Assembly: GCA_002269645.1 (NCBI GenBank)
Contig: NIVC01001277.1
Location: 1 to 64,000, forward strand
Length of the DNA: 64,000 nt
Direction: 5' to 3'
DNA from: Macrostomum lignano
Lineage: Eukaryota
The notes under the pieces are model-generated. The model was not told the DNA's origin. It worked only from the letters and a program-made list of their open reading frames with translations, and made no database searches. Made by a program: the position numbers and the translations under genes. This document shows, piece by piece, positions 59,201 to 62,200 of the stretch (position 1 is its first letter; every line of letters starts with the position of its first letter).

Positions 59201-62200
59201 CCCCGCTTCGCCCCATGAACTGCGCCTGAGAGCCAATTTTCTCCCCGATGAGGCCCCGCAGCGAGTTTATCTACATGTAGAACGCTACTTCTTGGCGGCC
59301 AGAGGGCCGCAAGAAGGTCCCGCCACCTCCTGTTACGTTGATGGCTGAGACTTTGTTAAGGCCCGAGTTCCTGCGAAAGGGCTGCTGTGTGGGGGTTGGA
59401 TTTGGGGTTCGGATTAGTTATTGCTATGGAACAGGAGCTGGTTTCTAAATGGCTGAGTGGTCCCCGGAAGGGCTCCTGATTTGCCGAGAGTTCCTGCGAG
59501 AGGGCTGTTGTGTGGGGTTGGATTCGGGGTTCGGATTGGTTATTGCTATGGAGCGGGAGCTGGTGTTACTTACCAACTCTCGTCGTATATAATCTCGCAC
59601 ACAGCCGGAAGGAAAGCTCACAGTGAACAAAATGAACTTCAAGACATTATCGAACAGATTTCGAATCGGCGTCAGGTCGCACTCGAAGTGCATCAGCATC
59701 AGAAAGTGGTACAAATTTGATGAAGAGTATCGACCAGGTCTGCCTGGCATGGAGCTCACCGTCCACCAGTTTTGCCACTTGGGCAGCCTGAAGGAACGAC
59801 TGGAAGAGTTTGCAAGAAAGTGTATCGATGCGCAATGCCTTCTGGGTGGCAACAGGCAAGTGGTTGTGCAAAATGGCGTAATCACACTCTGGCGCCTTCC
59901 AACTGTACTCGGACCGCCGGTGCACCTAAGGCACGCCTTACCGCTTCCTACAAAACTTTGGCGCGAAGTCTGGGCTCAAAAGCATTGGGTCCTAGACAAA
60001 ATTGACAAGCGAGAACCTCCGGTCAAGCCACCGATCGGCGATCCATGGTGGATGGGATACCACCCTACGGAGCCTGAAGAGTGTGCAGCATGGGCAGCAA
60101 GGCTTACACTCGACCAACTTATACAAGTACCTGACAGGCAGCCGGCAGAGTGGGACGACCACTGGGAGGCTTTCCAGGCAGTTCAGGCTGAATTTAGAAA
60201 GAGATTTGCATCCGAAACTCTGGAAGTGCCATCAACAGCTGAGAAGAACCAACAGCCTTCATGCCACCAGCCACCAATGAAGCGACGCGCAATGCATGAA
60301 GCGACAACTGGTCATTTCGTCAAGTAACTTTTTTTTTAAATATAGTTTTGAACCATAGTACTGATCATGCACTGTTGTATATACTGCTTTGTCAATACTG
60401 GCTATAATATTGCCCCATGATGCTTTAATTTCTTGCGATAATACCTGTTTTGTAAATACACGTGACGGGCCTTAATACTGCCCTTCCATTCTTCATAAAC
60501 TTTTTTTGTGCTAATAGGAGCTTTTAACATGTAATTTTATGCTTTGCAATCCATGGACCTGCCAATTAAATAAACAAAAAAAACGTTTCATTTTTGTGTA
60601 CAAAAGATAAGAAAAAATAAACGCGAATGCAACTATGTTTGTGCAACAATGCTTACAAAAAATACAGAAGTAAAGTTATAGGAAAAATATTATTATTATT
60701 ATTATTATTACTCAGTGCATAGGCAGATCTCACTACTACTGTTATGCCGTAGAGGAGCTCAGTCAGAGTCCAGCAAAGTAGGTTCGGATGCTTGGTCTGC
60801 ATGCAAAATGCGGGAGAGGGCATCAGCTGCAGTCTGAGCCTCAACCACGCTGCGAGCACCAGCTATTATACAGCGATATGAATGAAACAAAATCAACTTT
60901 ACAGAAGCAGTAAACTCGAGCACAAGTCCGTTAAACATTTCCGGCTCATAGGTGCCCCGATGCGGCCATTTAGACTTGACTTCCCCCAACCGGAGTGGAT
61001 GCCGACCCGCGGGAAAGGTCGTCACAGAGGTAATAGTCTTGATGCGAATCTGGGGCAGACTGGTCAATCGCAAGAAGTCCGCACACAGCTTCACAATCTT
61101 CTCTGTCTCTGCGAGAGCTTCCTCCATGCTTTTGGCTCCACAGACAGACACTTGTCCGGTCGGATACACCAGCGCGGTTACTCGATGCTGCCCGCTCTTC
61201 ATCACCACTGCCAGTGTTCGAGGATGAACCAGGCGATGGCGGATTGTGTGATACTGAGGCAGATGAAGAGTCAGGAAATTCGCTAGTTGTGGCAGAGCCA
61301 CCCGGGTCGCCAGGTCGGCTCCTGTCACGATGTTTGTTACGCGAATTGTTGCGGCCATCTTTAGACAATCGAGAGAAATGCCAGTGCCTGCTGCAGATCG
61401 CTACTTTTATAGACCCGTAGCCGCGAGGCCGCAGCCAATCAGCGTACAGCGCCACCTTGGCCAGGGCGCAGGGTAGCACGTACTTCGAGGCACTCGGAAA
61501 GGCCAGGTGTGCGAGGTCGTAGACAGGCTGTAGCAGCAGACGCGACAGGAACTGGCACTTGACATCCCCCTTGCTGAATATCGGGCCTTGCAAGTGGGAG
61601 ATATCGCTCCAGAGACAAGAGTAGGGTCGGAACCCACTCCTGTCCCAGTCTAGACCGTGCCGCTTATTGGTGAGCCAGTAGCAGGTTCGTCGCTGTCCTC
61701 GATCAAAGAGCTCAAAGCTGTGCGGCGGTCGGTAGCAATAGTAATGAGCCGTCGTTTGACCGCATGCAAACTCAACCCATGCAATTTCCTTAATCACAAA
61801 GTCCTCTGTTTTGTAGAGGTGCGGAAATCCTTCAAAATCAATGACAATCATCTTGGCCACTTGATCCACTTGCCGTATCCTTTCTGAGACTGAGTCTTCT
61901 TATAGCCTTGCAGACGAGGTTTTTTAGGACTGGACTTTTCTTCCCGAGGCTTTTCCAGCAATTTTGTAGTGTTCAGACCAACTGCAGACAGAGGCACGTG
62001 GTTTTCTTGAAGACACGTAACAAACTCATTAATCCCATTCGGTGGCTGAAGGTACTTAGAGTACGTATCTTTAACTATGAAATGCAGCAGGTCCACGATA
62101 TTTGAGTTGTACAACGGTTTACCATTGACAGAAACTTCATACGTATCATCTATGCTAATCGACTTGCACTTTACGGTTATGAAGCTAATCAATGCCTGCA

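Follow-up and report, generated by a model that had tools for sequence, protein, structure and literature searches.

What does a PC4-like protein do in a Polinton: does it serve replication as a single-stranded DNA (ssDNA)-binding protein (SSB), or does it serve transcription as a coactivator beside an element-encoded TATA-binding protein (TBP)? This question is raised by a locus in Macrostomum lignano (contig NIVC01001277.1, assembly GCA_002269645.1), of which a stretch of 64,000 nucleotides (positions 1 to 64,000, forward strand) was analysed and is referred to below as the window. The window holds a Polinton/adintovirus copy of 11.9 kb at 51537-63464, recognised by identical terminal 30-mers, inverted arms and near-identical copies elsewhere in the genome. 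Two Polinton lineages, A and B, are present in this genome, with PC4-like proteins that are 27% identical between them, and the window copy belongs to lineage A. Its PC4-like open reading frame (ORF) of 231 amino acids (aa) lies at 59632-60327 on the forward strand, with a TATATAA box (59586-59592) 46 nt before the ATG, in agreement with a preliminary description of the sequence that had placed the box about 45 nt upstream. On profile and model evidence, the encoded protein is well supported as an element-encoded single-chain (type I) tandem PC4 fold with one canonical and one degenerate repeat, and the chances are about even that it acts as an early ssDNA-binding helper of strand-displacement replication.

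Family and fold of the tandem PC4-like protein

The preliminary description had also reported a PC4/Sub1 signature followed by a weaker second repeat, and both were borne out. The window protein matches PF02229 in Pfam over residues 6-50 with E=5.8e-5 and 23 bits against a cut-off of 25 bits, which is exceeded by lineage-B relatives in the genome search (30-40 bits). A PC4 match at E<=0.1 is found in 14/14 aligned relatives (best 2.4e-9), and a family profile searched against the PDB retrieves human PC4 and MoSub1 (E=3.9e-6 to 4.8e-5). Relatives were sought among 1.84 billion representatives, giving 194 matches at E<=0.001, the best 150 of which were examined; an alignment of 26 rows comprises 12 database proteins (picked by eye, each with both repeats once), P0001, P0002, 11 other copies from the genome and the window protein. 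The ORF opens directly with the DNA-binding domain and is laid out as repeat 1 (approximately residues 2-62), a degenerate repeat 2 (approximately 65-124), a helical acidic and aromatic region (approximately 140-195) and a basic C-terminal motif.

Repeat 2 aligns with a profile of 362 PC4 domains at an hhalign probability of 94.9 (pairwise E 4.4e-8), compared with 1.8 for the C-terminal region used as a control, the 362 domains having been cut from proteins retrieved with the PC4-like family's own profile, which may favour this match. A third PC4 repeat in the C-terminal region was rejected at that probability of 1.8. Aligned directly with each other, repeats 1 and 2 score 5.2; tandem-PC4 pairs can be aligned with both in register across 121 columns (probability 99.5), and 131/226 inter-domain spacings in tandem-PC4 proteins measure 65-74 aa, near the spacing of the PC4-like protein. 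Origin from the first as against the second repeat of such proteins scores 93.6 and 95.5, respectively. In many of the database proteins P0011-P0150, PC4 domains are closely paired, with two or four per protein, and this tandem-PC4 family is nameless in the records checked.

The AlphaFold model contains two successive PC4-type sheet-plus-helix units, with a predicted local distance difference test score (pLDDT) of 92-97 over most of residues 1-120, and its superposition reproduces the four-strand-plus-helix PC4 fold. Foldseek places PC4 and MoSub1 at the top with a root-mean-square deviation (rmsd) of 1.4-2.2 over 63-66 columns at an E-value of only 3.6e-3, and the unrelated fold that would have spoken against the PC4 assignment did not materialise. 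The top match in a wide structure search is Pur-alpha (Z 10.9, rmsd 3.8, 118 residues aligned); PC4 superposes on repeat 1 with an rmsd of 1.2 over 63 residues, and the PC4 homologue of phage T5 aligns with Z 6.1 and rmsd 4.8 over 69 residues. PC4 clusters of the Atlas score 0.88 for the protein, which serves as a lead only. The two repeats lie in one chain and are modelled as one domain, which is the type I topology (a class of approximately 120-150 aa) and not the type II PC4 homodimer.

Cellular PC4/Sub1 (PF02229; PDB 1pcf, 4bhm) shares with the element protein the repeat 1 fold, R86, W89 (or Tyr) and a PG motif, but forms homodimers of one-domain chains that bear an N-terminal regulatory tail, whereas the element protein is a single-chain asymmetric tandem with a PG[VLI]PG motif and a C-terminal extension. 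Host PC4 carries an N-terminal acidic/basic region, whereas the element protein has neither a serine/acidic nor a basic region. The single-chain topology is common to the type I PC4-like domains (Pur-alpha repeats I-II, Whirly and MRP1/2) defined in PMC7549692, although by sequence the element protein is akin to PC4 and not to PUR or Whirly. The phage T5 homologue (PDB 4bg7) has the PC4 fold in common and is a type II dimer in a phage. A quick tree with 30 tandem pairs places the PG[VLI]PG family on one side of a branch with support of 100, the 'viral' and 'cellular' labels on its database proteins being assumed.

The PC4-like gene in adintoviruses is already annotated, as 'MOSUB'. The top BFVD match is MOSUB of a Branchiostoma lancelet adintovirus (UniProt A0A5H3CIS2; E=3.3e-4, 172 columns, 16% identity), and an uncharacterised protein of Drosophila-associated adintovirus 2 ranks fourth (E=2.5e-3). 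The text of Supplementary Fig. S2 of PMC8502044 (Starrett et al. 2021) contains the labels MAEL, MOSUB and SSDBP, and in this extracted text a label row reading ITR, PolB ... MAEL, MOSUB, ITR resembles the lineage-A gene order. The main text of that paper does not contain MOSUB, PC4 or Sub1 and mentions TBP solely in the legend of a figure devoted to other MELD viruses, and the terms PC4 and TBP were not found in 10.1101/2024.03.25.586562, PMC11131425 or PMC10748475. No study of Polinton PC4 or TBP function was found in the literature, with most subscription journals lying outside its coverage; for the asymmetry of the tandem, the promoter common to the PC4-like and polymerase genes and the pair of promoter classes described below, no earlier description was found in the literature searched, and the same is true of studies of Polinton displaced-strand protection and capsid-gene timing. 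For these subjects, the locus offers an SSB candidate recognisable by its diagnostic motif PG[VLI]PG, together with a divergent TBP and two classes of promoter that can be told apart.

Only 3 of the 107 PF02229 matches in the genome score as the host gene, and all 8 unassigned matches that were opened are element-type copies, suggesting that some invertebrate 'PC4 expansions' in genome annotations may be Polinton genes. Host TBP (C70/C713/C1301), a TRF2-like gene (C350/C3090/C3513) and host PC4 (C37/C98/C1344) are each present as three equal-scoring, apparently intronless copies. A metagenome scan yielded one 1.5-kb contig with a PC4-like relative, on which no second element gene was identified; the database relatives checked sit on contigs of 0.7-2.6 kb, and a viral contig collection scanned with PC4-like, TBP-like, capsid and ATPase alignments gave no relative.

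DNA contacts, promoters and a candidate role in replication

The DNA contacts of PC4 named in PMC4350104 were mapped by alignment and counted over the 26 rows. Repeat 1 keeps an Arg at the R86 equivalent (R24) and an aromatic residue (Trp or Tyr) at the W89 equivalent in 26/26 rows each, and repeat 2 keeps Arg at the R86 and R100 equivalents in 24/26 rows each. Between subfamilies, the ratio of non-synonymous to synonymous substitution rates (dN/dS) over residues 1-125 is approximately 0.15 or lower, with dS near saturation; between the window copy and a 91%-identical copy it is approximately 0.5, and many PC4-like copies are frameshifted. Judged by these ratios, the PC4-like gene is under purifying selection.

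Gene orders were taken from 24 loci that were picked from match lists and opened, a non-random sample. In lineage A, the order is terminal inverted repeat (TIR), polymerase (PolB), integrase, a block of capsid, protease and ATPase genes, the Maelstrom-like/TBP genes, PC4 facing back, and TIR; in lineage B, it is TIR, PC4, integrase, the same block, Maelstrom-like/TBP, PolB and a Cys/His-rich ORF facing back, and TIR. The core block is flipped relative to PC4 and PolB between the lineages. In both, the PC4 gene adjoins one TIR and the polymerase lies towards the other, with both genes reading inward. The Cys/His-rich ORF of lineage B (300-490 aa) lies between TIR and polymerase (L056:5402-6385, L089:1578-3062, L064:4729-6063), has no Pfam match, carries a TATA box upstream in 3/5 copies viewed and was not seen in the lineage-A copies opened.

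The lineage-A TIR extends past the TATA box and stops a few bases short of the PC4 start and approximately 58 nt short of the PolB start, and the upstream regions of the PC4 and polymerase genes are correspondingly alike (1034 bp at 99.7% identity in C254, 1042 bp at 86% in C114 and 643 bp at 92% in C1978). By this comparison, the PC4-like gene and the protein-primed polymerase of lineage A share one predicted TATA promoter inside the TIR. A TATAWA box lies within 130 nt upstream of 9/11 PC4-like genes, including that of an independent metagenome contig, with an expectation for TATAWAW of approximately 0.05 sites per 120 nt, and the box class of the structural genes (HTAAGAR, below) precedes 0/11.

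Two readings of the PC4-like protein were offered in the preliminary description, a component of an initiation kit and, alternatively, the SSB of strand-displacement replication. Because its promoter is shared with the polymerase in lineage A, the SSB reading is favoured, at roughly even odds of being correct; the fold, the kept contact residues, the selection, the inward position beside the TIR, the TATA promoter itself and an ORF that opens at the DNA-binding domain, unlike host PC4, also speak for it. A PC4 homologue, that of phage T5, is reportedly linked to DNA replication (in a title and a review passage). Protein-primed replicons use diverse non-OB SSBs (10.1101/2021.03.25.437074), and adenovirus DBP, phi29 p5 and Bam35 B35SSB are replication ssDNA-binding proteins with folds other than PC4. 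Under the replication reading, host RNA polymerase II (Pol II) and TBP would transcribe the PC4-like gene early from the TIR, together with the polymerase, and the product would act as a helix-destabilising accessory of protein-primed strand-displacement replication, like adenovirus DBP and the phi29 and Bam35 SSBs. Its two sheets would coat the displaced strand or a melted terminal panhandle, and its acidic/aromatic tail may contact the polymerase or host factors. The TBP-like protein would probably serve the separate TAAGAA box of the structural genes, and the adjacency of PC4 and TBP genes in lineage A would result from the orientation of the core gene block.

Several observations weigh against a replication role. 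In repeat 1, the R100/K101 pair, which in PC4 binds the DNA backbone, is replaced by a hydrophobic residue and Pro, the Pro being present in 26/26 rows and in 0/362 other PC4 domains, so that the family motif PG[VLI]PG stands in place of PG-basic-basic-G. The aromatic residue equivalent to F77 is found in 14/26 rows and is absent from the window protein and lineage A, and in repeat 2 the W89 aromatic is missing in most members. As read from the alignment, the domain is asymmetric and remodelled, and because of these replaced and missing residues its predicted affinity for ssDNA may be low or changed; cellular PC4 binds with a dissociation constant of 0.6-3.4 uM (PMC4350104). The shared TIR ends before the PC4 TATA box in 6/6 lineage-B comparisons, and the lineage-B polymerase has another gene upstream. 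The gene-order evidence comes from two lineages of one genome, the TBP gene of lineage A also lies behind a canonical TATA box (TATAAAAG, without TAAGAR), and an early TATA promoter would be just as apt for a transactivator. The SSB and coactivator roles are non-exclusive.

The TBP-like protein, the TAAGAA box and alternative roles

The TBP-like gene (60759-61358, reverse strand; TATAAAAG at 61404-61411 on the same strand) encodes 199 aa, the core domain only, and is a true TBP homologue, as the preliminary description had supposed. Two repeats match Pfam TBP (PF00352; E=5.6e-19), and the model has the saddle fold of the family, aligning with human TBP over 176 residues (Z 17.4, rmsd 3.3). TBP has four intercalating Phe residues, two Asn residues and a stirrup for TFIIB, and these positions were mapped on the host TBP. 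The element sequences compared keep an EPE stirrup, two C-repeat Phe and one Asn, and in all seven of them one Phe is changed to Tyr, one Phe to Leu or Pro and one Asn to Thr, the altered sites including the first Phe of the N-repeat and the Asn of the C-repeat. These changes would fit a changed specificity, and the gene is under purifying selection.

A 293-aa ORF on the same strand (60970-61851; box ATAAGAA at 61897-61903) has an N-terminal Maelstrom/DEDD-like domain (Atlas Maelstrom cluster score 0.88, a lead only). It overlaps the first 389 nt of the TBP-like gene (60970-61358) in another frame in both lineages and mostly measures 281-293 aa when intact. The overlapped TBP codons have a dS of 0.07-0.72, compared with near saturation outside, and this low synonymous divergence suggests that the overlap may be dual coding, although the extension is of low complexity.

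A second promoter class is suggested by the core genes. Across six elements, a TAAGAR box lies within 150 nt before 36/48 core-gene starts (one of the 48 mis-entered), reads TAAGAA in 35/36 cases, and is at least 33 nt from the start codon in all of them; C is found at position -2 in 28/36 and (A/T/G)TAAG in 34/36. Most capsid, ATPase and integrase genes lie behind a (C/T)(T/A)TAAGAA box, which in both lineages stands at comparable distances upstream of five genes, and the box is missing before the protease (0/6), a 230-aa ORF (0/4) and one small ORF. HTAAGAR shows no enrichment over the window as a whole (54 observed, 61 expected); the information lies in its placement alone, for which tests yielded p=1.6e-4 to 2.4e-3 per element and sense/antisense counts of 10/0, 11/1, 10/2 and 7/0. 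Three hand-entered starts in these tests are non-ATG, and the p-values are optimistic in that the motif was defined on the same elements, homologous sites are shared between subfamilies and one box lies over conserved integrase codons. No initiator motif stood out downstream of the TAAGAA box.

The leading alternative to a replication SSB is the initiation kit of the preliminary description, in which the early PC4-like and TBP-like proteins, together with host TFIIA, TFIIB and Pol II, would open the TAAGAA promoters of the capsid, ATPase and integrase genes. Such a kit, which we regard as possible but doubtful, would be comparable to the herpesvirus pre-initiation complex and might link late transcription with replication. 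PC4 and TBP are kept together in both lineages, with TBP within 3 kb of PC4 in 33/43 lineage-A loci and within 17 kb in at least 53/81 lineage-B loci (a lower bound, the best 150 candidates having been scored). However, this co-occurrence, which the preliminary description had proposed to look for and which does extend over two lineages of this genome, says little, since both belong to the core genes and are found together with the polymerase, integrase and capsid genes as well. The convergence of the two genes that it had reported is general in lineage A (33/33 pairs), where it is common despite the extra inversion in the window copy, but does not extend to lineage B, where 52/53 pairs lie on the same strand at a median distance of 7.5 kb and 0/53 lie within 3 kb. 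With adjacency unconserved between the lineages, the kit finds no support as a linked unit of two genes, and the broader coactivator reading is retained.

The candidate late box, sense-biased and at least 33 nt from the start codon as for a TATA-like box, is consistent with a coactivator role, as are the EPE stirrup and the two C-repeat Phe kept in the TBP-like protein while other contact positions are changed in 7/7 sequences. The canonical TATA box of the lineage-A TBP gene would also allow both proteins to be early and to act jointly on late promoters. Cellular PC4 acts with TFIIA (PMC9409219), and a viral TBP mimic that goes with a variant box is already known in ORF24 of Kaposi's sarcoma-associated herpesvirus (KSHV) (PMC6541308). 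The beta- and gammaherpesvirus pre-initiation complex is alike in that structural genes are preceded by a variant TATA box (TATTWAA for KSHV ORF24) and a TBP-like factor is encoded by the virus, but ORF24 is a TBP mimic in a six-protein complex and binds Pol II directly (PMC6541308), whereas the Polinton TBP is a stand-alone core of 187-199 aa in a small element, with the TAAGAA box as its putative target. Against the coactivator role, the PC4 promoter of lineage A is shared with the polymerase and not with TBP, and the PC4-like protein is without the N-terminal region that regulates PC4 coactivation in mammals (PMC9409219). The adintovirus map text with the MOSUB label has no TBP label, although this concerns extracted text only, in which an overlapped TBP frame could be missed.

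A combination of the replication and coactivator roles was also considered, in the form of a two-step programme. Host TBP would read the TIR TATA promoters (of the polymerase and tandem PC4 genes and, in lineage A, the TBP gene), the element TBP would read the CTTAAGAA-type box found upstream of capsid, ATPase and integrase genes, and the single-chain PC4 would bind the displaced strand and help to license late promoters. As a whole this is rather unlikely; if true, no more than two general factors captured from the host would serve to tie late transcription to replication. It is plausible that an SSB for replication and a TBP for late genes are both encoded by the element.

The late box itself may instead be a baculovirus-type DTAAG promoter, recognised not by the element TBP but by the RNA polymerase that a large DNA virus supplies as helper. 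Helper-driven promoters are known for virophages, and the (A/T/G)TAAG found in 34/36 boxes is the baculovirus late motif (PMC5997678). This origin is nevertheless quite unlikely: the conserved box is longer than DTAAG (TAAGAA in 35/36, C at -2 in 28/36) and lies at least 33 nt from the start codon, whereas baculovirus transcription starts in or around TAAG (PMC5997678), and the element has its own TBP under purifying selection.

That the target of the PC4-like protein is some other ssDNA intermediate or the host is distinctly improbable; in such a role it would protect an excised strand, aid integration or repair, or compete with host PC4 or RPA to dampen damage signalling. PMC11131425 cites a model in which excision passes through a single-stranded intermediate, the lineage-B PC4 gene lies directly upstream of the integrase, and the remodelled PG[VLI]PG loop suggests a changed partner or substrate. 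In lineage A, however, the PC4 gene lies at the far end from the integrase and shares the polymerase promoter, and the lineage-B integrase gene has a TAAGAA box and not one of the TATA class. Finally, that the ORF is functionless and its PC4 similarity a decayed capture or chance is scarcely credible, since the below-cut-off single-sequence Pfam score, the many frameshifted copies and the higher dN/dS against the 91%-identical copy are effectively overruled by the low dN/dS of the PC4 domain between subfamilies, its retention at 27% identity across two lineages and the relatives in public metagenomes.

Organisation of the window copy and its surroundings

The two ends of the window element are identical 30-mers beginning AGTAGT, and its TIRs have the AG termini of Polintons/Mavericks. 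Flanks match as a 6-bp target-site duplication in 6/8 other copies having both ends; the 6-bp duplication of the window copy falls in the (TGTC)n microsatellite into which the element is inserted and hence is not discriminating. Microsatellite targeting was rejected, the flanks of other copies being diverse. The characteristic enzymes are also present, with an integrase in the window and PolB as a remnant here and in sister copies as a gene. The window copy is non-autonomous, as the polymerase catalytic region is absent and the major capsid frame is split.

The left TIR (51537-51800, forward) is shortened in this copy. An 843-bp piece at 52384-53226 recurs at unrelated positions in two other loci (L032, L034) and is probably an independent small mobile element that replaces the inner left repeat. 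It is followed by a 143-aa remnant (53305-53736, forward) resembling the N-terminus of the protein-primed polymerase, 47% identical to the beginning of a 1236-aa ORF in sister copy C254 that matches DNA_pol_B_2 (E=5.6e-12), and by a 97-nt repeat present three times at 54245-54576, between the polymerase remnant and the integrase. The retroviral-type integrase occupies an open frame at 54893-55909 (forward, first ATG at 55025; PF00665 E=1.3e-13, weak chromodomain).

The structural genes follow on the forward strand. A putative minor capsid protein (55906-56688; box TTAAGAA at 55895-55901), kept in both lineages, is assigned from position and size and from the usual Polinton gene layout; a small basic 87-aa ORF lies at 56670-56933 (box ATAAGAA at 56531-56537). 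The putative major capsid gene (56933-58205; box ATAAGAA at 56827-56833), likewise assigned from position and size, is in two frames (56933-57424 and 57309-58205), whereas its relatives have a single ORF of 423-427 aa; neither capsid ORF has a Pfam match, Polintons/Mavericks being characterised by a major capsid protein with a double jelly roll and a minor one with a single jelly roll. An adenain-like cysteine protease (58202-58660) has weak matches to Peptidase_C48 (E=0.0099) and C5 (E=0.1), and a packaging-type ATPase (58584-59348; box ATAAGAG at 58566-58572; AAA_22 E=1.3e-4) has a C-terminus altered by an inversion.

Comparison with other lineage-A copies identifies this inversion as a copy-specific segment at 59278-62774 holding the PC4-like and TBP-like genes. 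It carried along the inner part of the right TIR (59278-59624, forward), which in complete copies holds the promoter shared with the polymerase gene and whose position 59624 is a loose end in one of the read-derived contig sets. Two AATAAA signals (60569 and 60616; 60569-60621, forward) lie 3' of the PC4-like ORF, and beyond the TBP-like and Maelstrom-like genes are conserved ORFs of 198 aa (61848-62444) and 110 aa (62404-62736; box ATAAGAA at 62764-62770), both on the reverse strand, followed by the outer part of the right TIR (62776-63464, reverse). Both inversion junctions (59271-59278 and 62769-62776) read TA-CATG-TA, where other copies have a single TA. Ordinary, uninverted junctions are found in all four read sets, whose contigs cover the element, and no contig piece among those compared spans the inversion junctions of the window copy; an assembly artefact is nevertheless unlikely, because the same 4 added bases are present at both junctions. 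Junctions of this type recall Tc1/mariner excision footprints and suggest a transposon-mediated inversion.

Pieces of a host tyrosine-phosphatase gene at 50633-51568 and 62790-63932 (reverse strand) flank the element and correspond to positions 100-170 and 25-98 of the Y_phosphatase3 profile; the element and its microsatellite probably sit in an intron of this gene. Further away, positions 1-10000 of the window contain a tandem array with a unit of approximately 627 bp (16 periodic motif matches); Rfam gave no match in the window, this array included. Three ORFs of 266, 140 and 343 aa at 39483-41760 resemble a transposase-domain gene.

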